In this document: one piece after another, positions 598-25,312 of the stretch
How the letters are laid out: each line of letters begins with the position of its first letter
Position numbering within the stretch: the first letter of the stretch is position 1
Origin: Methanothermus fervidus DSM 2088
Lineage (GTDB): Archaea > Methanobacteriota > Methanobacteria > DSM-2088 > Methanothermaceae
Assembly: GCA_000166095.1 (NCBI GenBank)
Contig: CP002278.1
Location: 1,080,001-1,112,000 of the forward strand
Direction of reading: 5' to 3'
DNA length: 32,000 bases
Position numbers and translations under genes: made by a program
Notes under the pieces: model-generated
What the model was told of the DNA's origin: nothing
What the model saw: only the letters and a program-made list of their open reading frames with translations
The model's database searches: none

Positions 598-764
598 AGA
601 AGAGAGAGAGGTAAATTTCAAGTGTAATAGCTAGAGAGAATTGAGAGAGGTAGTTATAAGTTATAACTTATAAGTTATAAGTGAAATAGAGATAGACTTA
701 TTAAGTATGTTAAGACAAAACATTTTTATACTGTATCCTGCCTAAAAACAAAATAATCAGTTCG
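598..764 (+). promoter_or_regulatory. CRISPR leader / long-repeat-like element, copy A
   Basis: It directly abuts the first repeat at 765. It contains GTTATAAGTTATAACTTATAAGTTATAAG at 653-681. Positions 688-764 recur inverted at 2594-2667, and 598-717 recur inverted at 12008-12128. Confidence 0.65.
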
Positions 765-858
765 GTTTTAAAATAGACTAAATAGTATGGAAATACGAAA
801 TATTTACAACCATGTGCAAATGAAGCTGGTTTTAAGATAGACTAAATGGTATGGAAAT
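765..858 (+). CRISPR. Mini-array A: 2 repeats of 30 bp and 1 spacer of 34 bp
   Basis: Repeat 1 at 765-794 is GTTTTAAAATAGACTAAATAGTATGGAAAT. Repeat 2 at 829-858 is GTTTTAAGATAGACTAAATGGTATGGAAAT. The spacer at 795-828 is ACGAAATATTTACAACCATGTGCAAATGAAGCTG. Confidence 0.8.
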
Positions 859-1106
859 CGAAAAGAGGCTCAAGCAATAGAAATAGAAGTATACCATATT
901 TTTTCCTGTGTCCATTGTCTAAAAAAAGTCCTGAAAAGGAGCTTGTTGAATTAAAACAGAACGAAAATCCATAATATGTATTTGTATCAGAAAATAATAC
1001 ATGATCTACTGATACTGGTGCACTAACATTTTCTATTATAATAGAAGGTACAATAAAAGTTTCAATTCCAAATTCACGTCCATCAGAAACTCCTTTTCCA
1101 TTTAAT

Positions 1107-1832
1107 CTAATAAAAATAACATGCTCCATCATGGCTTTCATGGTAATAACCATTTTTTAGGCAATTTAACAAAATATTTGTGTTGTTATGTGTTGTATAT
1201 TCCTCATAAGGACATTTTTTGATTAAAAATGGAGAAATTGCATTTTTATAATAAGAAACATTTTTTAATCCTTTTTCAGATAAATATGCTGCCAAAGAAT
1301 CTCCATAATATATTTTAGATTTATCATGATGCAGATTTCCATATTTTCTTAGTTTTATAAAAGGTAACGGGTCTGGTAAACCTTCAATTGAAAATTCTTT
1401 TGTAATGGTCTCTTGATGTTTCACGTTTCCCTCTTCAACATCTAATGAAAAGTTTATATCAATTAAAAAAGGATCATTACTATTTGTTTTCAAATAATTT
1501 ATAATACAATTTGATTTAATACCTTTATTTTCATATTTTTTAGATATTTCGTTTATTTTTGATTCTATTATTTTTTTTGCGCTATCTGAACTATTTGTAT
1601 AGCTGACATTGTTATCAATGACATTATATGCCATATCTTCAATAACTTTCCTTGCAATTATTGGTACATTGTTTTTAATATCATCCACCGTATAAATAAC
1701 ATTTTTAGAGGATTTTTTGTTGAGAATTATTGAATTCTCCATATTTATAAACGAAAAAACAGCTGAAAGTAATAAAATTAAAGGTATTATTAGTAGAAAA
1801 GTCATATTACTTATTATATAACCTCTTTCCAA
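1107..1832 (-). CDS. Hypothetical protein with an archaeal class III (pilin-like) signal peptide; possibly continues into ORF 842..1153 across a frameshift
   Basis: The N-terminus MERGYIISNMTFLLIIPLILLLSAVF has a charged head, G, then a hydrophobic helix. I recognise no other domain. ORF 842..1153 begins right at a T6 run (1153-1158) and reads like real protein. Confidence 0.5.
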   Translation of the reverse strand: MERGYIISNMTFLLIIPLILLLSAVFSFINMENSIILNKKSSKNVIYTVDDIKNNVPIIARKVIEDMAYNVIDNNVSYTNSSDSAKKIIESKINEISKKYENKGIKSNCIINYLKTNSNDPFLIDINFSLDVEEGNVKHQETITKEFSIEGLPDPLPFIKLRKYGNLHHDKSKIYYGDSLAAYLSEKGLKNVSYYKNAISPFLIKKCPYEEYTTHNNTNILLNCLKNGYYHESHDGACYFY

Positions 1833-1923: not shown

Positions 1924-2514
1924 ATGAAAATAATTAAATTAGATCCCTATAATCCAAAAACAAAAGTTTTAAATAAAGTCAGGAGAATGTTAGCCGAAGG
2001 TAAAGTAATTATATATCCTACAGATACATTATATGGCCTTGGAGCTAATGCATTTGATGAAGATGCTATAAAAAAAGTTTATTCAATAAAAAAAAGATCT
2101 TTTGACAAACCTATTTCTATCTGTGTTCCAAACATGCGTTGGATTCGTAAAGTTGCTTATTTAAACGATAAACAAAAAGAAAAGATTTCTAAATTATTAC
2201 CAGGTCCATATACTATAATTTTAGAAAAAAAAGATATAATTCCGGATGTATTAACTGCTGGAAAGAAGAAAGTCGGAATAAGAATTCCAAAAAGTAAAAT
2301 TTCAATAGAATTAGCAAAAGAATTTCCAATTACAGCTACTAGTGCTAATATATCTGGTAGGGAAACACCGCCAACTGTTAAAGAAATAATTAAACAACTG
2401 AAAAATGTGGATTTAGCAATTGATGTAGGACCATTGCGTGGGGAACCATCTACGGTTATTGATTTTACAACTGATCCTCCAAAGATAATTAGGGGCTATT
2501 TCCATACTATTTAG
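1924..2514 (+). CDS. tsaC: L-threonylcarbamoyladenylate synthase, single-domain YrdC/TsaC type
   Basis: Motifs YPTDTLYGLGANAFDEDAIKKVYSIKKRSFDKPISI, TATSANISG and PSTVIDFT are typical of the YrdC/Sua5 family. The last codons and the stop (..GYFHTI*) lie inside CRISPR repeat 2498-2527. Confidence 0.85.
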   Translation: MKIIKLDPYNPKTKVLNKVRRMLAEGKVIIYPTDTLYGLGANAFDEDAIKKVYSIKKRSFDKPISICVPNMRWIRKVAYLNDKQKEKISKLLPGPYTIILEKKDIIPDVLTAGKKKVGIRIPKSKISIELAKEFPITATSANISGRETPPTVKEIIKQLKNVDLAIDVGPLRGEPSTVIDFTTDPPKIIRGYFHTI

Positions 2515-2593
2515 TCTATTTTAAAAGCAATCCATATGGAGTAGACTTTGGTTATCCACACCAATTTCCATACTACCTAGTCTATTTTAAAAC
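2498..2593 (-). CRISPR. Mini-array B: 2 repeats of 30 bp and 1 spacer of 36 bp, downstream of cas2
   Basis: On the minus strand, the repeat at 2564-2593 is GTTTTAAAATAGACTAGGTAGTATGGAAAT and the repeat at 2498-2527 is CTTTTAAAATAGACTAAATAGTATGGAAAT. The spacer at 2528-2563 reads TGGTGTGGATAACCAAAGTCTACTCCATATGGATTG on the minus strand. Confidence 0.8.
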
Positions 2594-2698
2594 CGAACTG
2601 ATTATTTTGTTTTTAGGCAGGATACAGTATAAAAATGTTTTGTCTTAACATGCTTATAAGTCTACCCTTAATAACGAGTTTCATTTATAAAGACTGAC
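2594..2698 (-). promoter_or_regulatory. Leader of mini-array B
   Basis: Positions 2594-2667 are a near-perfect inverted copy of 688-764. The segment lies between the cas2 stop and the first repeat. Confidence 0.6.
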
Positions 2699-2962
2699 TT
2701 AAAGTATAAAATCAATAGTGTTTTTTTCAATTCCAAGAACATATAAAGAAACATACTTTTTACTAGGAAATTTATAAATCATCACAGAGTCACGAGTTTC
2801 ATCTATTAAGTCCTTGAGACTTGTTTTTATCTCATTGAACTGTGCTTTACTCACTTCACCCTCAAATACAGAGTTTTGTCTCCAATGGAGATAACTTTTT
2901 AAAAATTTATGAACTCTGTTAACTCTTTTGACGTCAACATCATATACTATCAGTAAATACAT
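2699..2962 (-). CDS. cas2: CRISPR-associated endoribonuclease Cas2
   Basis: 87 aa. MYLLIVYDVDVKRVNRVHKFLKSYLHWRQNSVFEGEV is the canonical Cas2 N-terminal beta-strand/Asp motif. It is the last gene of the cas operon. Confidence 0.9.
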   Translation of the reverse strand: MYLLIVYDVDVKRVNRVHKFLKSYLHWRQNSVFEGEVSKAQFNEIKTSLKDLIDETRDSVMIYKFPSKKYVSLYVLGIEKNTIDFIL

Positions 2963-2973
2963 TTAATCACCTT

Positions 2974-3003
2974 ATTTCTATACTATTTGGTCTAATCTAA
3001 AAC
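2974..3003 (-). repeat. Solitary CRISPR repeat copy in the cas1-cas2 intergenic region
   Basis: The minus strand reads GTTTTAGATTAGACCAAATAGTATAGAAAT, matching the array consensus at 26 of 30 positions. Its orientation is the same as array B and the cas mRNA. No partner repeat lies at spacer distance. Confidence 0.7.
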
Positions 3004-3046
3004 GCTAAAGAAGATATATCTGTTCAATGTTTTGAATTTAAATTAA

Positions 3047-4026
3047 TTACCACCATGCCTTGAAACTTTCATATTTTTGATCACCTAAGACATGTTTTAT
3101 TAATTTATATGCCTCTAACCTCATCAGATATTTATATGATACTCTCCTTTTGAGTTTGGGGTGTTTTATAGTTGTATCGAGCTTAGCCTGATATTCTCTA
3201 AGGAAAATTTGTTTGCCTCTATCGTTGAGCATTACACCAAGGTCTCTATCAAAATCCTTCTCAGAAATCATGCCATTATTTACTATTTTAAATATTACTT
3301 GACTAACTATTAGAGGTTTGAAAATATCCGCTATATCTAGAGCAAGTGAAAATCTCTTTTCAGCAGGTTCATGCAAAAAGCTAATAGATGGATGAAGATA
3401 AGTATGATATATTTCAGATAGTGCAGATACATATAATAATGAATTACCAAAGGATAGTAATGCATTTAATTCAGTTGTCGGTGGTCTTATTTCTCGTTTA
3501 TCCATTTTAAATCTTTTAAGGATGCTGTTAAAGCTTTGATAATAATAATTCCACATCCGCCCTTCATTGCTCATTACTTGCGCAACATCTTCTTCTACAA
3601 CCTCTTTCCCTATTATATCAATATAGCTGTCAACAGCCTTCCCTCTTTTTTGTAGTACTTCAATGATTTGAGTAAATTATGTTTAATGCCAAGAACCATC
3701 TCCCTAGCAATTTCAGATCTCTTCTTGGGATCTAAATAATACTCTGACTGTTTTACTACGACAAGTCCTGAATTAAGCTGCACACGTGGGTACAAAGATC
3801 CCTCATAATAACCATACTTATTGAAAAAATTAACAAGTACTCCCTTCTTCATCAATATAGATAATGCTCCTGATTTAATTGAAACTTTACCATAACAGTT
3901 TATCTCATTTATACGATTTATTGGGAGAGGTTTCTTAATATCCTTATTGATGAAGTATAATGTACTTCCCTGGCGGGATAATATCCCATTGGAAGTTATA
4001 TATAATGGATCTTTCACCGAAATCAC
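3047..4026 (-). pseudogene. cas1: Cas1 integrase, split by one frameshift (ORFs 3613..4026 and 3047..3574)
   Basis: The two ORFs together cover a Cas1-length protein. The C-terminal half has IRPPTTELNALLSFGNSLLY and LALDIADIFKP. The reading frame continues across the T6 run at 3646-3651 (..LKYYKK / RGKAVDSYIDIIGKEVVEEDVAQVMSNEG..). Confidence 0.85.
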
Positions 4027-4030
4027 CTAG

Positions 4031-4518
4031 TTAAATCATGCAGAATTCATAATAACTACATTTGCGACAATAAGGTTTATAAATAGCTTCAGGAGGAGAT
4101 TCCATTCTAACGACCGTTTTTATGCCCTTCAAAATTTTTTCTATTTTCGATTCCACTTCAGACGTTAGGTAGAGTTCTTCCCTTTTCTTTTCAGCGGGAT
4201 ACACCACTATTCCTCTCGCGTTTTTACCCGTAAATTTCTTTATGTACCATAAGTAATAGTAAAGCTGATACCTGACGGGTTCTTCAAGACTACTTGACTT
4301 TTTTATTTCAAAAATCGTCAGATTTTCTTATTTATGAAATCTATTGAAATTTCACCGAAATTTATGCATTTCTTTTCTCTTGAGAAACTTTTTTCATGGA
4401 GAAGTCTTCCTATAAGTATGTCGTCGTTATCATAGTTCATGTTTATCTGGTTTGCGAAGAACCATAATTTCCGCTTACAAACCATATAGTACTGGACCAT
4501 GACCCCAGTTACTTTCAT
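4031..4518 (-). pseudogene. cas4: Cas4 (RecB-like nuclease with Fe-S cysteines), split by one frameshift
   Basis: The N-terminal ORF is 4318..4518 (YYMVCKRKLWF). The remainder is read by hand: ENLTIFEIKKSSSLEEPVRYQLYYYLWYI...YKPYCRKCSYYEFCMI*. The frame changes at the T4 run 4323-4326. Confidence 0.85.
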
Positions 4519-4533
4519 GGAACCACTTTGAAC

Positions 4534-6952
4534 CTATATAATGTTCCAACCTTCCTCTTCAACAATCTCAAAACCACATGCGTAACTATAATTAACTCCA
4601 TGGATAAGATAGAAATTTTTCATATCATCTACCTTGCCTTCGCGTAGCATCTTAAGAAATAGCCATTTGTATATTCCCACAGTATTTTCAAACTTATCAG
4701 GGTCTTTTTCATTGAAAGATACAGCTGGAACTACATTAACTTTTTCAAACTTCTCATCAGTGTCCCTAATTGATAGTAAACGTGAAATTTCTTCCATGTT
4801 GTCAGTCTTAAAGCGGATAGTGTAAGGTCCTCTTTTGATGATTTCATCATATTTATTATACCCTCTTTTAAGTTTTCTATTAAAAGAAAACTTAATTTCT
4901 TCTATTTCAAGAAGGGATTTGTAAAGATTGGAGACCATTTCACTCATTTCACCGAGGGATGGCTTTCCATCTTTTATTATATCCTTTGAACACTCTATTA
5001 ACTCTTTTTTGTAAGGATAAACCCATTTACCGTTCTTAGTTTCAGCTTCTATACAAGTTTCTATGTAAACTTCTCCTACTTTATAGGGATCTTTAGATCT
5101 ATTTATTCTACCTAATCTCTGCGTTATTGCGTCTATTGGTGCTATTTCAGTAAAGAGTACATCAAAGTCTATATCTAGGGAAATTTCCACGACCTGTGTC
5201 GCTACCACGACTAATCCTCTATCCTTCCATTTTTCTTTAACCTCGATTTCATTTTCTTTTTGTTTTCTATGCTCCTTTGTGAATTGTGAATGATAAAGAA
5301 TTAGATTAGAGTTCTTATCAAACGACTCGCTTGTTCTAAAATATCCAGACTTTTCCAAGGCCCTATAAACTTCTCTTGCCTTATTGACGGTGTTAACAAC
5401 GACGAGTACCTTCTTGTTATTATTAAATTCACTTATTATGTTGTCTATTTTATCAAGAATTGAAGAATTTTCGACTTTCAATGAAAATGGTCTGTACTCA
5501 AAAAGACTTTCTTCAGTTATCAAAGTATAATTTAGATCCTTTAAAAGAATATTCTTAAGATTTTTCAGGGAATGTTGCGCTCATTATTGCAAATTTACAA
5601 CCTCGATTATTAAGTTCTTCCAATATTCTTTTTAAGACACCCAACATTTGCCAATCATATGAATGAACTTCATCGACAATTAAAAGACAGTTTTCTATAT
5701 TCAATTGAGAAAGAGGCCACTTATAAACGTTGAAAAAACTCAAAAGAAATGAATCTAAGGTACAAACTGTTATAGGTTTTGAAAAGGTTTTGTTAATTAT
5801 CTTTTCCTTCCATATTTCTTCCTGATCGTCAGCATATTCTTCTGCAAGTATAATAGAAGACGATCCATGTAATATACCGACTTTATCCTTTCCAAAATAA
5901 TCCTTAAGACGTTTATACATTGAATTGCTGGTTACCTGTGTGGGCATGGTATATATTATCTTAGTGTGTTTATTTTTGACGTTGTTTAAAGCCCATAAAA
6001 GAGCTGCTTCTGTTTTACCTTCGCCTGTTGGTATCTTTATAAAGACGTTGTCTGAACTTTCAGAAGCTTCCTTTTGGAATCCTTTTAAACCATGAAATTC
6101 ATGGCCTCTTGAAATTACTCGGGATTTTATTTTATTTATAAGTTCATTCTTAGAAATGAATTCCATGTCAAGTTCATAAAATCCAGATGAAAACCAATCT
6201 GCTCTAATTAAGTTCCCTGTGATAAAAGCATAAATTTCTTTTATTTTTTTCTTTTTTGAAAGACTAGATTGATTGAGAATACTGTTTAGATTATCAATAA
6301 TACCTTTCTCCTGAGATCCCCATGAAAAAGTGCATCTTAATAAATCGTAAGGACTCTTTGACGGCAAATTAAACTTAAATTTATAAGGACATGACTTATT
6401 AAAAAATTCTTTATAATAATTTTTATATTGTTTAGCGAATTTCAATGTCTCTTTAAAAAATGTAGGAGGTTTTAAATCCCTAAACTTTTCACTTCCGTAA
6501 ATATCATCATGAAGAAGTGTATGGTGTGTGAGTATTGAAAGTGTAATATAATCAACATCGTCGATTTTTGGCATTTCAAGATTATAAGTAAAGTAAACAG
6601 AATATAATGGGTGATATGACTTCTGTTTCTTTAAAATTTTATCATTATAAAACTCAAGAGTCCCTTTTCCTATATCATGGAAAAACACTGCGAAAAATAA
6701 GACATCTAAAAGTAATTGTTTTTCAATGTTGTGCCTTTTTGCAAATGAATCAAAAGTTTGACTATTATCATTTATAAATTTTTCCAGTGACTCCAGAGCT
6801 TCTTTTGTATGCCCTTCAAGAGTGAATGACTTTTCATTATTGGTCTTTGCTATAAGATTTACTTCAAAAAAAGAGGGATCTATATTATATAATTCCTTAA
6901 ATTTGGTTTTATGATTACTGACAAATTCCTTTAAGTCCATCATTTGCATCAT
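4534..6952 (-). pseudogene. cas3: Cas3 (HD nuclease fused to a DEAD/DEAH helicase), split between the RecA lobes by one frameshift
   Basis: ORF 5555..6952 has HD motifs (FFHDIGK, LTHH), Walker A PTGEGKT, DEVH and MSAT. ORF 4534..5523 has the helicase C-lobe (VATQVVEISLDIDFD, RLGRINR). The frame stays open across the T5 run 5561-5565. Confidence 0.85.
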
Positions 6953-6998
6953 GAACCAACCTGAAATTTGATGGACTGCTCAGTATAAATTCATGGCA

Positions 6999-7720
6999 TC
7001 ATAAGAACTCTATGTTATAATGGTAGTCTTCGTCAAAGTAAAGATCCTTATTTCTGTTATATAATTTACATTGAAGACCTACAAACTCTACTATTTGGAC
7101 AAATTTAGTGGGTTTCCTAGGAATTACATTCTTATTAAAATTAAGATTGACTGAAATTATCCTAGGAGGGAATAAATTTGAATTGTCTGTTCTCAGAGGA
7201 CAATATCTAAACTCCATACCCTCTTCTAAGGTAAATACACTATGTACGATTGTGTCATTCTTTGGTTCCATGGTAATTTTTTTGGTTCTCTTATGATCAC
7301 CATCTCATCATCCATGCCAAGAGATGGAACTCTTGAAGGATACATCAAAAATTCCATCATCTTTTCCAAAAGATGGGAATCTTCTGCTGATACATAGATT
7401 AAATACTTACCTCTGTAAATTTTTTCGTGTTGGAGTATGTCTCTACCAGCTCCAGCAGACTTCCATTTTTTAAAAGTCCATGCATCATTGAATATAGAGT
7501 TTATATAAACAGGGATTATTCCAACCTGGACTTTATCAAGAAGTGCGTAATAGTCTCTCTCATTTTTACCCATGATATTTGTGAGCATGCCCACAACTTG
7601 CGTCTTTGTTGGAGCCAGGCATGTCAATTGGTAAATGGATGTCTGGGGCATCCTAAAAGAATTAATAAGGCCCTCAACAATGAATCTTACTGCCTCCATT
7701 TTAACACCAATCATACCCAA
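6999..7720 (-). pseudogene. cas5: Cas5 (type I-B), split by one frameshift
   Basis: The N-terminal ORF 7226..7720 (RFIVEGLINSFRMPQTSIYQLTCLAPTKTQVVGMLTNIMG) is Cas5-like. It continues into ORF 6999..7271 across the T7 run 7277-7283. Confidence 0.8.
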
Positions 7721-8621
7721 CCTTTTATATTGTCAAGGGCTTTGTTAACAGAAGTTACATTTTCTTTAAATTCAGATTTTATCTCCTCTTCATTACTGAA
7801 TATACCAGATCTTATGCCAATATAGTACTCAGCTATTATATCTTCAAATTCATCGATGACTTCCTTGATAGGACTGATGTCAATACCACCATCTTCATTT
7901 ACGTTGAGAGCATTGAGGAAAATAGGCGTGCCTGCTTTTTGCCTTGTAACAACTACAAACTTTGGTGTTAAATCATCAAGAAGCCTTGCTCTTTTTGCTC
8001 CTCCATCAATACTTTTAAGTGCATCTACCAGATACGCCACCCTCCTCTTTTTTCATCAGGGTCAATAACAGTATCAATCTCATAACTAAGTTCATCGACA
8101 GTGGATCCTATTGCATCCATATCTATTACAATTGTCCCCTTCATGAAGTTGAAGGTGTTTATTTCAACTTTAACAAAGTCTCCACCTTCCTGACCTTCTT
8201 TTTTTCTCGTTAAGAGATCATTGTATCCATTCCATGGGAATATACTTATAAGAGGAGAGACCTTTACTGGTGACCACCTTCTAAGAGCCATTGTGTTAGA
8301 ACCTTTAACAGCTTCCATGAAGCCAAATAAATCCAGATCAGGGTGATTCTTCAGTATTTCATTATACCTACTCTTATCTTTGCTTTTAGATTCTATTATA
8401 TACTCTCCATTCTTATCTACTTTTGTAAGTTTCATTCCAAGCTGATTCATTGTCTCTTTGAGGTAGTATCTTAGTGCTTGCCCAGAAACATAGGGGTAAT
8501 AGTTCCCCTTATTATCCTGAACTTTTTTTAAGATCACCATGTTTCCAGGATTTTCACTACTGTTGAGGTTATCTATGTTAACCTTAGTTATGTACCCTAT
8601 ATTTACAAATGTCCTATTCAT
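7711..8621 (-). pseudogene. cas7: Cas7 (Csh2/DevR-type backbone subunit), split by one frameshift
   Basis: The likely start is MNRTFVNIGY at 8621, preceded by GGAGGGG. It contains SGQALRYYLKE. It continues into ORF 7711..8040 across the T6 run 8048-8053. Confidence 0.8.
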
Positions 8622-8622
8622 T

Positions 8623-10300
8623 TTAATCCCCTCCTTTTTTCTTTGCGTATTTAGTGGATAGGTATTTTTGTATAGCATAAATAGCAAGATAATTCCTTAT
8701 TAAATTTATACTGTTTTCTTTTGTATCCATTAATATCTCTTGAATCAAATCACTGTATCTTTTGTCAGTCCCTTCTACTCGAGAGTTCCAGACTGCTCCC
8801 GCATCTTCTTTTAATATTTCGTATTCAAGGTTTTTGAAGAACTCACTAAGTCTTTCAAAATTTCCTATTTCTCTAATAGAATATAAAACATCTTTTTTAT
8901 CGTATTGAGCTGCGAAATATCCAATCCTGTTTCCGACAAGCCGACACACATTATGCAATTCCTTAATATCAGACATTCCAATTACCTCCAAATATTTTGT
9001 AAGAAATTTATAAAGAAGGAATGAGTTAATACTAGAAGGATTATTTTGTGAAAGATTATAAAAAGACAAGTCGCTCAAAACAGAGTCTATAGGGAGTCCG
9101 AAGAGGATCCTTCTTGAAATTTCTTCTCTGGGTAAATTCTTCATTTCATATTTGTTTATACCTTTATAATACGAATAATTCATTAGTAAATTTAAGAAAG
9201 GAGTACTAGATTCGTTTCTTAAATTTTTAATGCTGTCAAAAAATTGTGATATGTACGAAAGCTTGTTGTAAACCTTTAAATCATCCACGCCCCGGGTGGT
9301 AACAACAAAATAATATATGGAGAGATAAGCAAGTTCATCCCTGTCAATTATTTTTTCCTTAATTTTATGAATTAGAAGGAGTAATCTTGAATAAGGACCG
9401 CTTGTAACAAAATCTCCGCGTTTTAGAAAGTTTGTCTTTTTTGAAGATTCCTCAAGATAATCCTCAGGAATCATCAGAATCTTCTTTATATTATATAAAA
9501 AGCGGAGGGAAGGAGCCGATATCAGGAATACATTGTTATCAACAAAATAATTATTTAATAGACCATACTTGTAAATAAGATCACACATAAAACAAACTAT
9601 AATATCTTTTTTTGACCTTAAATCTCTAAAAGATGGCCTTTTGACACCCCCCTCCTACACCAAAGTCAAATATCAAATTGGTAGATTTTATTGAAAAAGA
9701 CATTTTTTTGCCGTTATCGTCTATATACTTTGAATACTTATTTCCACAGAAAAAACATTTGTCTCCTGCCAGAATTTTTTTAATTTTTGATGAAATAGAT
9801 TCTCCAAGTCTTTTTGGTTCCAAGTATATCATTACCATATTCTTTTCACCATACTGAAGCTTGCCACTTACCTTCCCTTCAAAATTACTTTTAGCCTTGG
9901 TCTCTTCATTTTTGAGGGCTTCGAGCTTTTCCTTTGATACTTCCATTCTAGGTAAAAGATTGTTTGTACGCTCAGATCTCTGTAAATATGGTTTAACATT
10001 AAGTTTTGGTGCTATAATGACCTTATCATTTTTTGGATCATAATAAGGTTTGTAATTTTTGGTTTCCTCAAATGCCTTGGAGTAATAAATACTTCTTAAA
10101 ATAAAATAGACATCTTCCAATTCCTTAAATGATCCATGGAAGATAATTTTATTATCTAAGAGTTTAAATTCGGAATCCCCATATTTCACGGTGTAATCAT
10201 CAATATTTTTGAATCTTTCGTCTTTTTTAATATTTAAAAAGATATTCACGAGCCCATTATCGTAAAGAAAATCCCTTTTCTCAAAACTTATTTTGATCAT
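8623..10300 (-). pseudogene. cas8b: Cas8b-like large subunit, split by one frameshift
   Basis: It sits between cas6 and cas7. The combined length is about 550 aa and it has a CFFCG motif. The frame stays open across the C6 run 9647-9652 (..FDFGVGG / VKRPSFRDLRSKKDIIVCFMCDLIYKYG..). Confidence 0.7.
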
Positions 10301-11013
10301 TTTATACTCCCCACTGTATTTAGCATTCCAAATCCCAGTGAATTCTTCTCACCAATGCCACAATCTAATATAAACCTATAAAATCTTTTGTTGTCCATAT
10401 TAAACTTTTCAAGATTCTTCCAGAGCGTCCCTATGACAATGAACATTTTACCTGCCCTTTTAAGTCTAACAGCAACCTCTCGAGCGTATTTAACCCTGTC
10501 AAAAATGTTTCCATCGAAATAATAATCACCATCATGAAAAGCATTATACTTTTTCAAGGCATTTTCTTTCAATCTTTCCATAAAAAATGAAAGGTCACAT
10601 GATTTTTTCATCGAAAAATAGATATTTTTCCTATTATTTTTATACAATACTACTGGCGTGCTCGTTATAAATTGTCTTCCAAATCGGGTTTTAAAAAGAC
10701 TCACAGATTCCAACTCAATTGGGATCTTTCCTAAATAATATGATTCATTTCTTTTAATTTCCTTTTTAATCGTTTTCAAAAGCCTAGGCGCTGGTGAAGA
10801 AATTATTAAATTTTTAGTTTCTCCTCTCTTAAAATTACTTATTGGGAAAATATTTGAAAAACAAAAATATTTGAAGCCTCTTCTGTTATGGTAACTTTCA
10901 AATTTAGAACTTCTCTTTAAAAATGAGTAAATAAATCCCTGAATAGTATAATTATTGACTGAGGTGTATCCAAAATCTTTCTTTGGTTTAAACTTGATAA
11001 GTAGTCTCATCAT
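10297..11013 (-). CDS. cas6: Cas6 crRNA endoribonuclease
   Basis: 238 aa. It has the C-terminal glycine-rich loop GIGEKNSLGFGML typical of Cas6. It is the first gene of the operon and is intact. Confidence 0.85.
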   Translation of the reverse strand: MMRLLIKFKPKKDFGYTSVNNYTIQGFIYSFLKRSSKFESYHNRRGFKYFCFSNIFPISNFKRGETKNLIISSPAPRLLKTIKKEIKRNESYYLGKIPIELESVSLFKTRFGRQFITSTPVVLYKNNRKNIYFSMKKSCDLSFFMERLKENALKKYNAFHDGDYYFDGNIFDRVKYAREVAVRLKRAGKMFIVIGTLWKNLEKFNMDNKRFYRFILDCGIGEKNSLGFGMLNTVGSIK

Positions 11014-12009: not shown

Positions 12010-12128
12010 TGTCTTACACGCTTATAAGTCTATCTCTATTTCACTTATAACTTATAAGTTATAACTTATAACTATCCCTTCCCTCAATTCTCTCTAGCTA
12101 TTACACTTGAAATTTACCCCTCTCTCTC
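12008..12128 (-). promoter_or_regulatory. Leader / long-repeat-like element, copy C (orphan)
   Basis: It is an inverted copy of 598-717, including CTTATAACTTATAAGTTATAACTTATAAC at 12044-12072 and ..CTAGCTATTACACTTGAAATTTACC.. The proximal leader part found at 721-764 is deleted. Confidence 0.65.
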
Positions 12129-12182
12129 AAAAAGATATTTTTTAGAAAAATAAAAATTTATTTATTAGATTCTTTTGGAGGC

Positions 12183-14462: not shown

Positions 14463-14640
14463 TTGAGCTACCCCCTACGGAGCTTCCTGCTTCATAGAGA
14501 AAACTTGCCCAGAGACTATATCCTTACAGGAGATAGTTCTGAGTAGAGGTTTTCTCTCAGGCAGGCTATCAGGACTACCCCATTCCCTCAACAATATTCT
14601 ACACGCTGATATATAATCTCTTAGTTTATTCTTATAGGTT
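14463..14640 (-). ncRNA. Putative omega-RNA (reRNA) scaffold overlapping the tnpB 3' end
   Basis: By analogy with characterised TnpB systems. This roughly 180-nt block is what the deletion derivatives M3 and M4 retain. M1 retains a shorter, more diverged version that lacks the hairpin. The block ends with the hairpin GAGCUCCGUAGGGGGUAGCUC directly at the element end. There is no expression evidence. Confidence 0.4.
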
Positions 14641-15602
14641 AATCCTTTTGATGTTCCTCTTGGATTTACCTTCTTAACAATCTTACCGGCCCTTTCAGCC
14701 TTGTAAGATAGCATTTGAAGGAATTTACCCCAGGAAGCATCTAAAATACTTTTTGCAAGCTTATGATTTTTAACCATATTCTTTATAGTTAGATTCTCAA
14801 CACAAATCACGTCATAATTATCAACATAAAACCTACTTAGCTTATGTAGGAAGTCATCCCTTTGATTTCTTAACTTTTCATAACATCCTGCAAGTTTCTT
14901 TCTTTGCTTCTCATAGTTCTTAGAACCTTTCTTTTTCCTTGATAGTTTCCTCTGTTCAATTTTAATTCTCTCCAGGGTTTTTTCATAGAATCTTGGATTT
15001 TCTATTTGCCTTTCTTCACTGTCTGTTAGGAAATGCTTTATTCCAACATCAATTCCTATTGCTTTACCTGTTTTAGGCTTGGTTTCTTTTTCTTTCTCAA
15101 TACAAACTAAAGCAAACCATTTTCCAGATCTATAGCGTTTCACTATAATCTGTTTTATCTTCCCCTCAATTTCTCTGTTTATCCTAATTGGAATTTCTCC
15201 AATCTTTGATAGATATAGCCTATCTAGTCTTTTTCCAGTTTTTATTATCTTGAAACCAGATTGATTATAAATAAAAGATTTAAACCACTTTCCTTTATAC
15301 CGTAGTCTTCCGACCTTCTTACCATTTTTCTTAAGTTTGGCTAAAGCTTTTAAGTTGGAATGAAGCTGATAAAGCACAAGCTGTAAAACTTTTGCATATA
15401 CTTTCTTTAATTCAGTTTTTTCTTTCTTTAATTGAGTTAATCGCTTGCACATCTTATAATATGATATATACTCCTTAGAATTATTAATTTCACTTAGAAA
15501 ATAATTATAAACATGCCTACAAATCTCTAAAGTTTCCAATAGCTTGTCTTCCTGTTCTTTACTTGGATAAAGTCTGAACTTATATGCATAGATATGTGAC
15601 AT
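14475..15602 (-). CDS. tnpB: TnpB (OrfB) RNA-guided nuclease homolog, zinc-finger-less
   Basis: The start is YAYKFRLYPSKEQ. RuvC-I is IGIDVGIKHF, RuvC-II is VCVENL, and the RuvC-III region is LRDYISACRILL. The likely start is the ATG at 15600-15602, conserved in the MITE copies. The ORF track extends to 15617. Confidence 0.9.
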   Translation of the reverse strand: MSHIYAYKFRLYPSKEQEDKLLETLEICRHVYNYFLSEINNSKEYISYYKMCKRLTQLKKEKTELKKVYAKVLQLVLYQLHSNLKALAKLKKNGKKVGRLRYKGKWFKSFIYNQSGFKIIKTGKRLDRLYLSKIGEIPIRINREIEGKIKQIIVKRYRSGKWFALVCIEKEKETKPKTGKAIGIDVGIKHFLTDSEERQIENPRFYEKTLERIKIEQRKLSRKKKGSKNYEKQRKKLAGCYEKLRNQRDDFLHKLSRFYVDNYDVICVENLTIKNMVKNHKLAKSILDASWGKFLQMLSYKAERAGKIVKKVNPRGTSKGLTYKNKLRDYISACRILLREWGSPDSLPERKPLLRTISCKDIVSGQVFSMKQEAP

Positions 15603-15893
15603 GAAGAAAAGTAGCATGAGAGAGTATATATAGTTTTCTTTTTTCTAGGTATTTTTGGGGAGAGAAAGAAAGAGTAAGAGAAAGTTGTGTATATTTTTTT
15701 AGAACAAGTGCTAGTTTTGTACTTCATCTATATAAATACTTTTTCTGTTTTCTCTCAATCCCTGATAGAGTGGAAATCTGGTTTTTCACAAAATCAATTT
15801 CAATCTTCTTTTTATTTTTTTATTTTTTAAAAATTCTGTTTGTAAAAAATTCAAAAAAAATATAAATTTTAATAATTTATGATCAGGTATTTT

Positions 15894-15983: not shown

Positions 15984-16928
15984 ATGAAAACCATAAAAAT
16001 AAGTCCAATAAGATGGAAAGTTATGGAAATTTATTATTGGGGAAGTAGATCATTGTTTAAAATTTTATTCGTATTGATATTTTTCATCCTCTGCGGTTTA
16101 CGTGGTATAACTAGGAAAAAGCATATAACACCAGAAGATAAAGCTCTTGAATATTTTTTATTTAAAATAGTTTTTATTTTAGTAATCATTGTTTTCCTAA
16201 TTACGTTAGTAGGCTTTGTTATAGAAATAGATCCTAAGAGAAGGATTACTTATTCCAATCGCATTTCTTTCGCAGTATTCATAATAATGATATTTTCACT
16301 GGTAATGTTACTTATTTATAATTTCGTTTTACCTGCCTTGCTCTTCTCCATCTTTCTACTATTTTTACCACTCCTACACATCAAATTAGCCTCTGAACAT
16401 TTAAAGAAGAAAAGATACGTTATGTATGAAAATGCAGAAGGTGAGATAACAGATAAATATGTTGATTATCCTCTTAAAGCATTTTTTGAGGATCCTGAAG
16501 AATCATTGAGGAAAGTGAGAGAAGGAGCAGATGAAGATAAAAAGAAATTAAATAAAGATGAAAAAGGACTCCCAGAAAATACAGAACTTGGAGAGCTTAT
16601 TGATGGAGAAACCTTTAGTTTCCCTTTTATTGGTGGTCTTATGATTTTAATCAGTTTATCTACCATACTTGGCCTTGATAAATTATTTAAATCTATTGGT
16701 GGTTTTGGTTTTGTAGCGAGGCTTGTTTTAATGTTTATTTTTATTTTTATACTACCATATCTCCTGTCTTCTTATTATGAAAAGAAAGCTAAGGCATACC
16801 GTCATGATCTCAGGGAAGAATATCTAGTTATAAACAGAGATAAGAAGATCATAAAGATCTATGATAGCAAGGAGGAATTCTTAGGGGATGGATATAAGGT
16901 GAGAGAGTTGGAGGACACCTCCTCATGA
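15984..16928 (+). CDS. Polytopic membrane protein, paralog 1 of an uncharacterised family (MKTIKISPIRWKVM..)
   Basis: 314 aa with several hydrophobic helices, an acidic soluble insert and a C-terminal YLVINRDKKIIKIYDSKEEFLGDGY. It is homologous over its full length to 24440..25312, and the first 42 nt are identical. Confidence 0.7.
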   Translation: MKTIKISPIRWKVMEIYYWGSRSLFKILFVLIFFILCGLRGITRKKHITPEDKALEYFLFKIVFILVIIVFLITLVGFVIEIDPKRRITYSNRISFAVFIIMIFSLVMLLIYNFVLPALLFSIFLLFLPLLHIKLASEHLKKKRYVMYENAEGEITDKYVDYPLKAFFEDPEESLRKVREGADEDKKKLNKDEKGLPENTELGELIDGETFSFPFIGGLMILISLSTILGLDKLFKSIGGFGFVARLVLMFIFIFILPYLLSSYYEKKAKAYRHDLREEYLVINRDKKIIKIYDSKEEFLGDGYKVRELEDTSS

Positions 16929-16946
16929 AAACCATAAAAATAAGTC
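16870..16946 (+). repeat. Gene-end/gene-start junction repeat J2
   Basis: AGGAGGAATTCTTAGGGGATGGATATAAGGTGAGAGAGTTGGAGGACACCTCCTCATGAAAACCATAAAAATAAGTC recurs at 24384-24460. The trailing ATGAAAACCATAAAAATAAGTC is an orphan start of a third family member (MKTIKISLILHLL*). Confidence 0.75.
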
Positions 16947-17010
16947 TAATTTTACATCTCCTTTGACTTTAACAAAAAAATTTTAATTTTTAATTTATAT
17001 AATTTTTATT

Positions 17011-17997: not shown

Positions 17998-18004
17998 ATT
18001 TTTC

Positions 18005-18078
18005 CACTTATAACTTATAAGTTATAACTTATAACTACTTTCCTAATTTTAGCTGTTACACTTGAAATTTACCTCTCT
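18005..18078 (-). promoter_or_regulatory. Leader / long-repeat-like element, copy D (partial, orphan)
   Basis: CTTATAACTTATAAGTTATAACTTATAAC at 18007-18035 is followed by ..GCTGTTACACTTGAAATTTACCTCTC, matching copy C 12044-12125. No repeat or proximal leader is present. Confidence 0.55.
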
Positions 18079-18102
18079 TTGTTAAATATTGGAGGCATTG
18101 TC

Positions 18103-19310: not shown

Positions 19311-22300
19311 GGTTCCAAAGATTTTAAGAACCATAATACCTTTAATACTTTTTCTAATTTTGATTTCCCCTAGTTTTGCGAATTTAAATGTTTCTATAAA
19401 CTTAACAGCTAACAAAAATTCGACTTATTTTAAAGATAACATCAAATACACTATTTATATTAAAAACAATGGTTCTGAAGTTATAAAAAATTTAACAGCT
19501 GATTTATCTGGTCTTGGAATAGATAGTAAAAGTTTTAATGCAAGTATAACAAAAGGAAACATAGGTATTCTTGATCAATACACTCCTGAATGGAAGATTG
19601 GTGATTTAAATCCAGGTGAAACTGTAGCTGCAAATATAGAAGGGATTGTTGATTTTATTGGAGAATATAATGCTACAGTAGCAGTTACAAATGATTATAA
19701 TAATTATATAGAAAGTGAGCCTCTCTTAATAGTTTCAAAACCTGTTAATGTAGATTTATCAATTTCACTTATTCCAAATTCAACTTGTGTGCATTGGGGA
19801 GATTATATTAAAATATTAGTTAAAGTCAGAAATAATGGTCCTGATGATGCCGATAAAGTTTTAGCAATGTTAGTTACATATCCAGATTATGTGGGTTTAG
19901 GCATAAATGCAACCGCTGGAAACGCTGGAAAATTTTATGATGATTTTACGCTGCGATGGTATGTATATGTGTGGGATGTTGGTCGCGTAAAATCAAATGA
20001 AGAAAAAGTAGCAGAAGTTACTATTAAAGCTGTTAATTTCAATGAAGATCAAATTATAAGTAATTTCACTGTTATTGGCTATGTTTACATAGATGATGGT
20101 GGTATTATATACCTTTCCCCTGGGAAGAGTTATTGAATGATGAAGATGTAACTTCTATACTTCAGGAGGATTATGAGTCAGGATATTATAATGACTGTAT
20201 GGATAGGAACTTGATTAACAATTATGATAAGTTTAAAGTTACAATTTTAGAACCTGAGAAAGTAATTCCATTAACAGAGGAAGAAAAGAATATTAAGAGA
20301 AGTTATGAATGGTCTCAAGGTTTTAGTTGTCCATCTTTCATTCTTGGTGGTTTGGCAACAGCTTATAGACCAGATTTACTTTGGTATCCTGTACCCACAT
20401 ATGGATCTAATAATACGACAGTATTGGTAGCAACAGAATTACCTACAGATATAGAAACAAGCACAGGATCACCTAATGAATTAATAGATAAATTATTAGA
20501 GAATGCTCCGGAGATTCCATATATTCCATTAAATACAGAAATAATAATTGTGAGTAATTTTTCAGTAGTTCCAACATCTGGAAATGCTCCTCTAAAAAAT
20601 AAATGTGTCATGTTGTGTAAGTAATCATGGAAATAAAGAGGGAATTTATAGGGCTGAACTAAAAATAAATAATAATGTTGTTGATGTAAAAGAAGTTAAA
20701 GTCGGAGCAGGTGAATGCAAAAATATAACCTTCATATATACTTTAGATAAGCCAGGAACATATAATGTAACCATTGGAAACTTTCCAGAAATTAAAGTTA
20801 AGGTTGAGATTCCTCAAAAGGGGCGATTGTCTGTACCAATACTTCCACAAATTCCAGAGAACACAATAATATTAAATCCTATTTCTATCCAGCCTTCTAT
20901 TCAGGATAAGGAATTAGGAACCTACAACGTTACAATAGGAAACTTAACACCAGTTACAGTAACTGTAACAACGCCAGCAAGCTTCACACTAAGCAACTTA
21001 ACAGTCACTCCAACATCTGGAGTTGCACCACTAACAATAACTGCAACAGCAAAAGTTACAAACACTGGAGGAACAGCTGGAAACTACACAGCAGTACTCT
21101 ACATTAATGGTTCAGCAGTTGCAAATCAAACAGTAACACTAGGTCCGGGAGAGACAACAACTGTAAGCCTATCTTACACCTTAACACAAGCTGGAACCTA
21201 CAACGTTACAATAGGAAACTTAACACCAGTTACAGTGAATGTAACAACACCAGTTGTACCAACGCCAACTCCTGTAGTCCAGAATAAGACATTCTCAATA
21301 ATATTAAGAAATACAGGAACATCAACAATAACATTCAAATACTACATATCAGTTTACACAAATCCAGTTAATGGAACTAAAGTATACTACAAGGAATTAA
21401 CAATAACTCTAAAGCCAAATGAAACAAAAACAATAGAGTTAGGTAAATATCCTGAAATATATGCTGTAAGTACAACGATACTTATTGATAATAAGAGAAT
21501 AAAAAAATTGATTTTGGAGCTTAAATATTGTATTGAAGGATTAAATCCACAAACAATAATTTTAAATAAGAATGCCAAGTCAGGATTCAAATATGTTTCT
21601 AGATTTACAGGTAGAAATGGATATGTTGATTCTTGGTTTAATGAAATTTACTTTAGAAATATAAACCGGCAGATGGGTTACTATAATTATACAGTAGAAG
21701 AAATACCTGCAGATAAAGCGTTGTTAGAGTTAATACCAATCATTGGAACAAATATTTGTAATAGTGTTGTGATTGCCCCAAAAACTGTTATGTTTGACAT
21801 TGTTAATCCATCTAATTATATTTTAAATTTAAGAATAAAAATTAAGCCAGAATCCGTTAATAGTAAAAATACACGTAGAATAAAAAGTAAAAATACAATA
21901 ACAGGATCACTAGATACTTCTAAAACACTTTTATTTGATGATCTTACCTTAAATCCAGGACAGAGAATTGTTGGTAAGTTCTATGTTAAAGAGCCTGGAA
22001 TTTATAAAATAATGTTAGAAAGACTTTGTTATAAGAACACAAAAACAAAAGAAAAGGTAAGTTATAATATACCAAATGCATACCAATGGGTCGGAACAAT
22101 AATAGGAATTAAAAATCCAACTGACCAATTCATTGTTCAATCAAACGCTGAAAAATATTTAAATATTTCATTATCATCTAATATTGAAGATATAATAAGA
22201 GAAAAATTATTAAATGATACATTTAAAGTCCCACTAGATTCTGATTATAAATATGTGGGAGTTACTGTAATCGCCCCTGTATTTTATGCTAATTTATCTT

Positions 22301-24399
22301 CTCCTATATTATTCAGTGTGGGAGTAGTATCTTTTGTGATTAATGGTAAATTAGTCCCTATAGCTGTGTTATTTAACAATGACACAGCTTCACAACTTAC
22401 TGTTTTCATTAACACTACTAAGGATATCAAAATTATAAATAATATATTGTGTAAAACATATCATGCACTAATTGATCTGCTTCCAGATTATTTAAATAAT
22501 TATTACAAAATATATGACACTATTCATACTATCAGTACAAATGATGATGAGGAAAGGTTATTGGAATCTATAATTTCTTCCATGCTAGGCAAGTTTCTAT
22601 TTATTACAATGGAAGTTGATGAACCTGTGAAGATTTATCATTTTACTGAATATGGACTTACTAATCCATTCAGCCAGGATGAGGAGAATCATATAACTAT
22701 TATACCAGCAATATTTTGTAATGGTTGTTACCAAAATCTTAATATTTCTTTCATAGGTCCAGCAGTTACAAATCATATTTATTCAAATGAACAACAAAAT
22801 ATTACAATCATAACAGTTGAAAACTATGGATCTAAATTTATATTATCTTATAGTAAAGACCAAAAGTGTTATATTTATAAAACTAAAGATGGTAAGATAT
22901 GTAAATTAAAAACAAATAAGTATTTAGGTGATAAAATAGAATTAAGATTGGAAGAAGTACTTGAAGATTCAGGATATTGTGCTGCCATGACTTATACTAT
23001 TGTTAAAGAAAAAGTTAAAGATGACATATTGAAAAAACATATAGAATACTATGAAAAAAATTATAAGTATAAGGGTTTATACGGTCCCCTCATGGCATGT
23101 TACGGACAATTTCTAGAGGGTTTGTGCTTTTTCTATTGTCATGATTATAGAGCAGAAGAAATTGCTAAAGATGTTAATGTCACTTGGACAAGAGTAAAAC
23201 CAGCTGTAGTACTTTCGTGTGATATTCCTGGACACATCTCATCCTTTACTTTGGCATCAGATCATAATCTTGGCATTGAGGCCAAAGGAGATTTTGATAA
23301 TATTAGAAGATTTAATGCTGCAAGAACTGGAATTATTAATTACCTTGAAGTGTTAATACATAGTTCCTTATTTGACATAAACATAACAGAACAAGAAGCA
23401 CCTATCATTAATGTTCCAAGAGCAATTTTTGATGAAAGTTCCACTACTTACATTTATACTGATAATAATACGTTTGCAATTATAACAGACTCCTATAACT
23501 ATACAGACTTCTATTATAATGCAATTATAACAGACTTCTATACAGACTTCTACTTCGATTATAAATATCAAAGTTTTGTAGTGTTTGATAATCAAACAGG
23601 TATTATCAGAGACTTGTTAAAAAAACTAATAATAAGACATTGTGGATCATATTGTTTCTATTTCCAACAAGCAATGTTAGCATATGATCTTGCAAAAGAG
23701 CTTACAAATACAAGTTCAAAGATAAGAAAAATAATAGATGACGTAGGTCATAGAACAAAATTAATAACAATTTGTGAACCAAAGTTTTGGGCAGAAATCG
23801 CCTGTGGTATTTTAATTCAAATAGGCGCTGGCGTAAGTTTTGCAAATCCTCTTGTAGGTGTAGGGTTAATAGTTGCAGGAGTACTTGCCGATGCTGCATT
23901 AAAGGAACCTTGGAAAGATCCAGAAAGTGCCACTTATTGGCTCTTAGATTTAATATTATCAGTAATTCCGACAGGAAAGCTTGGTCAAATCGCAAAGACT
24001 TTGAAGTTATCGGGGGTTGTAGAAAGAATAACGTACTATACTTCTTATGGTCTTACTGTCGATGTTCTTAAGTATAAACTAGAGAATGAGGGAATCAAAG
24101 TCTATTTGGGAATAATTGATAGAAATTTAGAAGAAAAAGAAGTACCACAATTTATAAAAGATTTAAACTCAATGTTCAAATCAGAAGGAGTTGAAGTTAT
24201 ATCAGTTCTACATCTAAAATTTGAAAAAAAAGTAGGATTTATTGCCACAAGTTGGAAACCTTGGGCTGAAAATATAGGAATATCTGTTGTGGAGGCATAT
24301 CTTGAACCATATCTTGAACCATATGTTGGACCACCAGTTTGTAAGGTGTGGAGAATATTTTACAAAACTCTTAAGTCTTTATTAGGAGGGAATTCTTAG
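19309..24399 (+). pseudogene. Giant secreted CARDB/DUF11-repeat surface protein (about 1700 aa) interrupted by two homopolymer frameshifts (ORFs 19309..20136, 20133..20624, 20605..24399)
   Basis: It starts with signal peptide MVPKILRTIIPLILFLILISPSFA. Ig-like repeats follow (..YTIYIKNNGSEV.., ..VKVRNNGPDDA.., ..[29 protein letters not shown]..). A repeat unit is continuous across the A6 run 20594-20599 ([11 protein letters not shown] / [15 protein letters not shown]). The a/b junction is readable across C4 at 20117-20120 (..IIYLSP / WEELLNDEDV..). About 800 aa are unassigned. The C-terminus has a glycine-rich hydrophobic segment. Confidence 0.7.
20917..21236 (+). repeat. Exact 44-bp direct repeat (20917-20960 and 21193-21236) marking tandem duplicated Ig-like domain units
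   Basis: GGAACCTACAACGTTACAATAGGAAACTTAACACCAGTTACAGT occurs twice, 276 bp (92 codons) apart, and encodes [15 protein letters not shown]. Confidence 0.9.
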
Positions 24400-24481
24400 G
24401 GGATGGATATAAGGTGAAAGAGTTGGAGGACACCTCCTCATGAAAACCATAAAAATAAGTCCAATAAGATGGAAAGTTATG
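24384..24481 (+). repeat. Gene-end/gene-start junction repeat J3
   Basis: AGGAGGGAATTCTTAGGGGATGGATATAAGGTGAAAGAGTTGGAGGACACCTCCTCATGAAAACCATAAAAATAAGTCCAATAAGATGGAAAGTTATG. The 5' part matches 16870-16946 with one extra G. The 3' part matches 15982-16025 exactly. Confidence 0.75.
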
Positions 24482-25312
24482 AGATTTTATTCTAATAAAG
24501 TTAGTAAAATAGTTTCAAAAATTTTGTTTGTATTGTTATTATTTATTATAGGTTCTTTACGTCCTAGCCATAGATATTTTATGCCCATGAAAGAAATAAT
24601 TACAACATTAATTTTATTTATATTTGTAGGAATTATCCTAGTAATTTTTTTACTACCTAGCATTATTCTAGAGATAGATCCTAAAGAAAGGGCAAAGGAT
24701 ATACTTTTTACAATTTTGATCATACAATTGATGCTGGTTATTTTAGGATTAATATTTCAAATTACTGCGTTTATATTTATACTAATGGTGTCTCCAATCT
24801 TAGTTCTCATCTATATATATCAAAAATGCAAAGAGAAAGTATATGTTGTTTATGAAGATTCAGAGGGAAAAGAGATAGATAGGTATATATTTAATCTATA
24901 TACCTGTTATGATCGTGTAGACATTCCACTCTTTTCAAGTTATAGTATTTCAGATTTTATGGGGCGTGTTGTTGTGATACAATTTTTAATTTATTTTATG
25001 TTAGTGACTTTCCTCTGTTTTGCTATACTTCGTGTATTGGAGGCTAAATATGGTTTGGGAGCATGTGCAGCTCTATTGATTTTAATTGCAGTAGTTGTTT
25101 TTGCTCTTCCATTTTATTTTTATGTCTCAGGTATAGAAAAAAATAGTGAGAGGGCCACAATAAAGAAATACTTAGTTATAAACATGGATAAAAGGACAAT
25201 AAAAATTTATAATGATAAAGAAGAATTTTTAAGGGATAGATATGGAATGAAACGCCCTAAAAAAAGATATGAATTTATTTTTCCATTGGACTTTTTGAGC
25301 TACCTCCTATAG
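24440..25312 (+). CDS. Polytopic membrane protein, paralog 2 of the MKTIKISPIRWKVM family
   Basis: 290 aa. It shares the islands KILFVL, EIDPK, YVVYEDSEGKEIDRY and YLVINMDKRTIKIYNDKEEFL with paralog 1. The last five codons and the stop (LSYLL*) come from the M3 element end. Confidence 0.7.
   Translation: MKTIKISPIRWKVMRFYSNKVSKIVSKILFVLLLFIIGSLRPSHRYFMPMKEIITTLILFIFVGIILVIFLLPSIILEIDPKERAKDILFTILIIQLMLVILGLIFQITAFIFILMVSPILVLIYIYQKCKEKVYVVYEDSEGKEIDRYIFNLYTCYDRVDIPLFSSYSISDFMGRVVVIQFLIYFMLVTFLCFAILRVLEAKYGLGACAALLILIAVVVFALPFYFYVSGIEKNSERATIKKYLVINMDKRTIKIYNDKEEFLRDRYGMKRPKKRYEFIFPLDFLSYLL

Follow-up and report, generated by a model that had tools for sequence, protein, structure and literature searches.

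Degraded or orphaned CRISPR-Cas loci, as well as pseudogenised cas operons, occur in many bacterial and archaeal genomes. Here we describe a type I-B cas operon in a 32,000-nucleotide (nt) stretch of the Methanothermus fervidus DSM 2088 chromosome (CP002278.1, positions 1,080,001 to 1,112,000), the whole of which we refer to as the window. The operon has the same gene order and the same protein families as the I-B systems of Methanobacteriales (Methanothermobacter spp.), its Cas8b is 80% identical to MTCT_0983 of Methanothermobacter sp. CaT2, and the 30-nt repeat type and leader of the window are also present 3' of cas2 in a Methanothermobacter-like outgroup contig (L013). Unlike the Methanothermobacter I-B systems, it has frameshifts in six of its eight genes, arrays of only two repeats and a solo repeat between cas1 and cas2. 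As in other degraded CRISPR-Cas loci, the cas lesions stand alongside array shrinkage and close relatives keep an intact system, but the decay is unusually early, with only 1-nt insertions or deletions (indels) in mononucleotide runs and otherwise no deletions or nonsense codons. We conclude, with a probability of roughly 0.85, that this strain lineage recently ceased to use its type I-B locus, which is now undergoing neutral decay.

In Buchnera and Blochmannia, transcriptional slippage at poly(A) tracts rescues frameshifted genes, with efficient slippage described for runs of ~9 A/T, and programmed −1 ribosomal frameshifting in archaea has been reported for a candidate case in Sulfolobus and for the Mg-chelatase of Methanococcales (Atkins et al. 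2016, PMC5009743). The window resembles the Buchnera and Blochmannia cases in its AT-rich genome and in the position of frameshifts in A/T runs; there, however, the tracts are ~9 or more nt long and lie in essential genes in which the break is conserved, whereas the runs here are 4–7 nt long and the breaks are specific to the strain and affect dispensable genes. As in archaeal −1 frameshifting, A-rich slippery-like sequence is present at cas7 and cas1, but conservation and a stimulator are absent and the shifts run in mixed directions through six consecutive genes.

The operon occupies positions 2699–11013 on the minus strand in the order cas6-cas8b-cas7-cas5-cas3-cas4-cas1-cas2. This I-B synteny, first read from the sequence alone, was borne out by NCBIfam matches to the gene fragments, which are collinear and cover complementary profile ranges, and by PADLOC I-B models matched to the orthologues of a sister strain. 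No NCBIfam model matched the cas8b fragments in the profile search of window proteins; the intact sister Cas8b covers the PADLOC Cas8b model PDLC01563 from end to end (E = 1e-144), and each of the remaining sister cas genes matches its own I-B-specific PADLOC model (including Cas3b, Cas7b, Cas5b and Cas6b). Cas3 combines an HD nuclease with a DEAH helicase (NCBIfam TIGR01596 and TIGR01587), and the adaptation module cas4-cas1-cas2 is present (TIGR00372, TIGR03641, which is Cas1b, and TIGR01573). Taking unbroken effector and adaptation frames as the mark of a functional locus, we found six genes frameshifted. The G+C content of the window is ~30%, and that of the M. fervidus chromosome is 31.6% (published genome paper). 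The genes, their fragments and the breaks are listed below in transcriptional order, with run lengths on the coding strand and lengths of sister proteins in amino acids (aa).

10297–11013, minus strand: cas6, intact, 238 codons (TIGR01877, E = 2e-30; PADLOC Cas6b, E = 1e-116)
9626–10300, minus strand: cas8b N-terminal fragment, 224 codons, with a stop 6 codons past the G6 run (from the list of open reading frames, ORFs; collinear with the 561-aa sister Cas8b)
9647–9652, minus strand: cas8b frameshift, coding-strand G6 (sister G5), +1-nt insertion (alignment)
8623–9646, minus strand: C-terminal part of cas8b, +1 frame (ORF 8623–9588 in the list; P0019, 97% identical to the C-terminal half of sister Cas8b)
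8054–8678, minus strand: cas7 N-terminal fragment (TIGR01875/TIGR02585, profile positions 1–196)
8048–8053, minus strand: cas7 frameshift, A6 (sister A7), 1-nt deletion (alignment)
7711–8047, minus strand: cas7 C-terminal part (TIGR02585, profile positions 206–317)
7284–7720, minus strand: cas5 N-terminal fragment (TIGR01895/TIGR02592, Cas5b)
7277–7283, minus strand: cas5 frameshift, A7 (sister A8), 1-nt deletion (alignment)
6999–7276, minus strand: cas5 C-terminal part (collinear with the 237-aa sister Cas5)
5566–6952, minus strand: cas3 N-terminal fragment, HD nuclease and first RecA lobe (TIGR01596; TIGR01587, profile positions 2–167)
5561–5565, minus strand: cas3 frameshift, A5 (sister A4), +1-nt insertion (alignment)
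4534–5560, minus strand: cas3 C-terminal part, second RecA lobe and C-terminal domain (TIGR01587, profile positions 207–352)
4327–4518, minus strand: cas4 N-terminal fragment (TIGR00372, profile positions 2–50)
4323–4326, minus strand: cas4 frameshift, A4 (sister and outgroup A5), 1-nt deletion (alignment)
4031–4322, minus strand: cas4 C-terminal part (TIGR00372, profile positions 122–179)
3652–4026, minus strand: cas1 N-terminal fragment (TIGR03641, profile positions 2–126)
3646–3651, minus strand: cas1 frameshift, A6 (sister and outgroup A7), 1-nt deletion (alignment)
3047–3645, minus strand: cas1 C-terminal part (TIGR03641, profile positions 148–324, E = 1e-79)
2699–2962, minus strand: cas2, intact, 87 codons, protein identical in the sister strain (TIGR01573)

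All six runs lie where the sequence-only reading had placed them (C6, T6, T7, T5, T4 and T6 on the plus strand, from cas8b to cas1), and three-frame translation reproduced the mixed signs of the shifts, +1 for cas8b and cas3 and −1 for cas7, cas5, cas4 and cas1. A stop codon is reached 1–16 codons after each frameshift. We repaired the operon in silico by deleting a base at both +1 sites and inserting a base at each of the four −1 sites; with these six 1-nt corrections it reads as eight unbroken ORFs, which, when every open frame is taken from its first start codon, have 238, 558, 325, 240, 805, 162, 326 and 87 codons. The operon therefore holds no nonsense codons and no further frameshifts, and cas6 and cas2 are intact, in agreement with what had been read from the sequence.

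The six frameshifts are genuine and do not stem from sequencing error. For comparison we used contigs assembled independently from public runs (Logan) and found by exact-protein look-up with Cas2; the same look-up with Cas6 returned no match, probably because of a differing called start. The contig from SRR8649349 (L001) is 100% identical to the window across 8,834 bp, six sites included, and in contigs from four sibling runs (L004–L008, SRR86493xx) every aligned base equals the window at all six sites and beyond, the single gap being the adapter-fused 5' end of L004, away from the six sites. Because L004 starts with an Illumina TruSeq adapter, the SRR86493xx data are Illumina data; judging from their date, the runs plausibly come from a micrococcal nuclease sequencing (MNase-seq) study of M. 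fervidus that used cells of the Regensburg collection (GSE127678; PMC6877293). In both flanking regions compared, SRR072735 contigs match the window with 100% identity. The published genome combines 530x Illumina and 75x 454 coverage (605x) and was Illumina-polished to a stated error rate of <1 in 100,000 (genome paper). Further contigs carry extra deletions of 1–2 nt in mononucleotide runs relative to the window, comprising four homopolymer under-calls within the cas operon in L032 (SRR072198, probably the 454 run) and seven run deletions, one of them outside cas, in the low-coverage ERR97657xx contigs L003, L009, L021 and L031. These extra deletions are probably platform or low-coverage noise and leave all six lesions standing, the cas1 site excepted.

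The sequence-only reading had proposed comparing the same operon in sister strains, and this comparison revealed an intact sister operon without the six breaks. The sister contig (L002, DRR667206) has 98.5% DNA identity to the window and an identical Cas2 protein, and encodes Cas8b, Cas7, Cas5, Cas3 and Cas1 of 561, 322, 237, 804 and 323 aa, respectively; its cas4 is an ORF of 162 codons, for which the gene caller gave 136 aa. From cas8b to cas1, run lengths are G5/A7/A8/A4/A5/A7 in the sister vs. G6/A6/A7/A5/A4/A6 in the window, and the frameshifting indels in the alignment of the two coincide exactly with the six runs, 1 nt each. Other indels in the operon alignment are a 9-bp and a 3-bp in-frame indel in coding sequence and three that are intergenic. 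The operon of the outgroup L013 (Methanothermobacter-like, ~80% protein identity) is also intact and in frame at 6/6 sites. Since sister and outgroup are both in frame, the six window states are derived and represent four 1-nt deletions and two 1-nt insertions, confined to this lineage (6 frameshifts in the window lineage vs. 0 in the sister lineage, p = 0.03).

The outgroup contig belongs to a Methanothermobacter-like metagenome-assembled genome labelled Bacillota, which the contig search returned along with a distant Clostridiales Cas3; the label is probably a binning error. On L013 (1–12286), the cas operon has a G+C content of 36% vs. 53% in its upstream flank. This difference, together with ~80% protein identity to the Methanothermus operon, suggests that a Methanothermus-type I-B operon may have recently moved horizontally into the Methanothermobacter-like genome (L013, L029/L030). 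In L029/L030, also Methanothermobacter-like, cas8b (L029 9294–10960) has zero mismatches to L013 bar one A8 to A7 change, at a site that differs from the window's, which yields ORFs of 193 and 319 aa. This change is either an independent homopolymer frameshift or assembly noise; if it is real, run indels would be the lesion that usually comes first in this family of AT-rich operons.

We polarised substitutions with the outgroup to assess the age of the decay. The window lineage has 13 synonymous and 25 non-synonymous substitutions and the sister lineage 21 and 27, such that the ratio of non-synonymous to synonymous change per site (pN/pS) is 0.47 and 0.32, respectively; these values are not significantly different (Fisher p = 0.39), and substitution has not sped up in the window lineage. 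With pN/pS barely raised and no acceleration, most of the window branch was therefore under purifying selection, and a simple two-phase mixture assigns ~1/4 of the branch, or ~15 substitutions, to a neutral phase. In non-coding DNA, three strain comparisons gave 6 indel events and 14 substitutions, and the stop-creating share of random substitutions is 5.6%, with ~0.8 nonsense codons expected. Given this 6:14 spectrum, six indels alongside ~14–15 neutral substitutions and no nonsense codon are what a brief neutral decay predicts. One break per otherwise pristine gene had been called odd for slow decay, a premise that does not hold in this lineage, where unconstrained DNA gains indels almost as often as substitutions. 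Very recent multi-hit inactivation, which had been offered as one way out, is supported by six lesions that are derived relative to an intact sister and outgroup and by a pN/pS that is only slightly raised. Runs of at least 4 nt make up 12.4% of the operon and contain all 6 indels (p ~ 4e-6 under uniform placement), a concentration that fits polymerase slippage during replication. The operon, 26% of the window sequence, contains 6/8 of the window's frameshifts (p = 0.005).

Two vestigial CRISPR arrays lie beyond cas2, and a solo degenerate repeat separates cas1 from cas2.

2498–2656, minus strand: vestigial CRISPR array A, 3' of cas2 (leader ~2593–2656, repeat 2564–2592, 36-nt spacer 2528–2563, terminal repeat 2498–2526)
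702–858, plus strand: vestigial CRISPR array B, convergent with A (leader 702–765, repeats 766–794 and 830–858, spacer 795–829)
2974–3003, minus strand: solo degenerate CRISPR repeat between cas1 and cas2 (also in sister L002; exact 31-nt gap in outgroup L013/L029)

Arrays A and B each have two repeats and one spacer, their 64-nt leaders are 97% identical, and they bracket a 1.6-kb segment with tsaC/sua5 and a hypothetical gene, with the terminal repeat of array A overlapping the tsaC stop codon. Both outward-reading genes between the arrays have their stop codons inside terminal repeats, and both proteins end in ...FHTI. Because the leader is duplicated, contigs from public short reads break at 2578–2622. 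The genome paper lists 0 CRISPR repeats and 28 pseudogenes, and Tandem Repeats Finder did not detect the two-repeat arrays in the window. Protospacers of the two spacers were found neither in the window nor in IMG/VR (24-nt seeds), and a metagenome scan for the repeat returned one unrelated contig with 39% GC and three repeats. The solo repeat may have arisen through ectopic insertion of a repeat or may be a repeat-like element with a regulatory role; a CreTA-like role is a further candidate.

Under recent neutral decay, each of the two neighbouring arrays would have shrunk to two repeats with a single spacer, leaving little or nothing to protect, such that selection on the cas genes would have relaxed. 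Slippage during replication, which very often causes mutations at short mononucleotide runs in this genome of 31% G+C, would then have produced six independent 1-nt indels (four deletions, two insertions), each of which truncates its gene within 1–16 codons. Full-length proteins of the six genes are predicted not to be made, so that neither interference nor adaptation is expected to function. The order of events (array vs. cas loss first), the neutrality of hits two to six and the absence of protein are inferred.

Four observations weigh against neutral decay. The rise in pN/pS is not significant, so the substitutions give no independent proof of relaxed selection. Six hits in six different genes are slightly more even than chance (p = 0.024–0.033 under random placement), a weak and post hoc result. 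Both cas6 and cas2 are intact, for which chance suffices, as they are short (P that both escape ~0.47), though residual function is also compatible. Finally, the cas1 site in the ERR97657xx data reads A5 at one contig tip and A4 in one contig, in which the frame is restored.

The even spread of hits would be explained by adaptive loss, in which hits were individually favoured, for example by a self-targeting spacer or toxic partial complexes, and separately disabled interference (cas8b, cas7, cas5 and cas3) and adaptation (cas4 and cas1). The reduction of each array to one spacer and the occurrence of all six frameshifts in one lineage with none in the sister are also in its favor, but any single Cascade hit abolishes interference, so that hits two to four add nothing, no target of either spacer was found in the window or IMG/VR, the p-value is post hoc, and the neutral indel rate is enough for the number of lesions; we consider adaptive loss unlikely. 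Reversible phase variation, with the runs as contingency tracts that switch CRISPR-Cas off and on within populations, could draw on the cas8b frameshift of L029/L030, in a near-identical operon of another lineage, and on the run-length variants at the cas1 site in some contigs. Its tracts are short (4–8 nt), however, six reversions would be needed at once, two datasets from cultures do not differ at any of the sites, and the assemblies agree apart from noisy ERR97657xx and SRR072198 contigs, which leaves it with next to no credence. Functional recoding, by contrast, would supply low levels of full-length Cas proteins through RNA-polymerase slippage or ribosomal frameshifting at the runs. Every break is in an A/T or G run, the ERR97657xx contigs vary in run length, including the in-frame A4 at the cas1 site, and a −1 slip at cas7 or cas1 gives the reading ..A AAA AAG..; yet the broken state is conserved in neither sister nor outgroup, two sites need +1 and four need −1, and the runs of 4–7 nt are under the ~9 A/T threshold. 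Moreover, the 80 nt 3' of each site folds no better than shuffles (z −1.49 to +1.28), six inefficient events would have to coincide for a multi-subunit complex with almost no CRISPR RNAs to load, and the occurrence of similar extra run deletions outside cas and in the probable 454 run points to noise. Slippage-dependent expression, which the sequence-only reading had put forward, is thus unsupported, and we judge recoding very improbable. We are equally doubtful that the ERR97657xx variants, including the in-frame cas1 A4, are real molecules rather than noise; if they were, archaeal RNA or DNA polymerase at ~83 °C would slip on 4–7-nt runs to give a steady minority of in-frame cas templates, and the 'dead' operon would keep a low, stochastic expression.

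A sequencing or assembly artefact would mean that the true operon is intact and that six homopolymers were miscalled, for example from 454 reads. 454 data did go into the original assembly and the SRR072198 contig shows four under-calls of this type in the operon, but Illumina-based contigs repeat each of the six sites and show 0 mismatches over 8,834 bp, 530x Illumina coverage served to polish the genome, and two of the six lesions are insertions in short runs (G5 to G6 and A4 to A5), which is atypical for under-calling. In addition, 5.8 kb of housekeeping genes (25.7–31.5 kb; 99.64% identity to the sister strain) aligns to two sister strains with 0 indels, and beyond the operon the window's long ORFs are unbroken except for two further frameshifted genes. 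Assembly error, also among the explanations first offered, is refuted for practical purposes, and we regard an artefact as extremely unlikely. The initial interpretation therefore stands in part, with recent multi-hit inactivation retained and slippage-dependent expression and assembly error set aside, and the locus is a case of ordinary recent CRISPR-Cas decay, neatly documented.

Decay extends beyond the operon, which is not the sole decaying locus of the window; this, the vestigial arrays and the two further frameshifted genes were all absent from the sequence-only reading. At least 8 genes are frameshifted in the 32-kb window, 6 of them in the operon, compared with the 28 pseudogenes counted genome-wide in the genome paper. 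A CARDB-repeat surface-protein gene (20133–24399, plus strand) has a +1 frameshift at A6 20594–20599 that splits it into ORFs of 163 and 1264 aa; the joined peptide aligns gap-free to the next CARDB repeat (E = 6e-26), and the break recurs in contigs from SRR072735, SRR86493xx and ERR97657xx. The second gene encodes a conserved hypothetical protein of ~320 aa with an N-terminal hydrophobic segment (842–1832, minus strand) and is split into 1107–1832 (241 aa) and 842–1153 (103 aa) by a 1-nt insertion near 1105–1110, with an intact 320-aa protein, presumably from a sister strain, covering both parts at 98% identity. This part of the small, reduced genome is dispensable and in decay.

Other genes in the window include those for fibrillarin, Nop5, archaeal CobT, MoaA and FdhD, a set in keeping with a methanogen, and Rfam and tRNA scans of the window gave no matches. 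A tandem repeat of 7 bp (ACTTATA/AGTTATA, 4.4 copies) and its conserved flank of ~40 nt occur at three intergenic sites (652–690, 12039–12131 and 18002–18086), two of which are ~100 nt upstream of genes (cobT at 12183 and an ORF at 18079), and are possibly a shared regulatory element. An IS200/IS605-type TnpB-like ORF (OrfB_IS605, with a truncated TNB/zinc-finger region) lies at 14475–15617 on the minus strand, with partial copies of its terminal sequences at 211–561, 25295–25707 and 31442–31880. On either side of the surface-protein gene cluster lie two paralogous genes for multi-pass membrane proteins (15984–16928 and 24440–25312), whose 5' ends are almost identical and which share a 97%-identical upstream segment of 77 nt (16874–16950 vs. 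24389–24465).

The pattern of one frameshift per gene reflects neither assembly error nor recoding, a clean negative that is not worth pursuing as either. As a snapshot of how CRISPR-Cas is lost, the locus is of modest value; all lesions are 1-nt run indels and each gene has an intact sister allele, which allows the ratio of indels to substitutions in unconstrained DNA of a hyperthermophilic methanogen with a reduced genome to be estimated at ~0.4. M. fervidus DSM 2088 should accordingly be treated as CRISPR-defective, and the DRR667206 strain is preferable for study of this I-B system.

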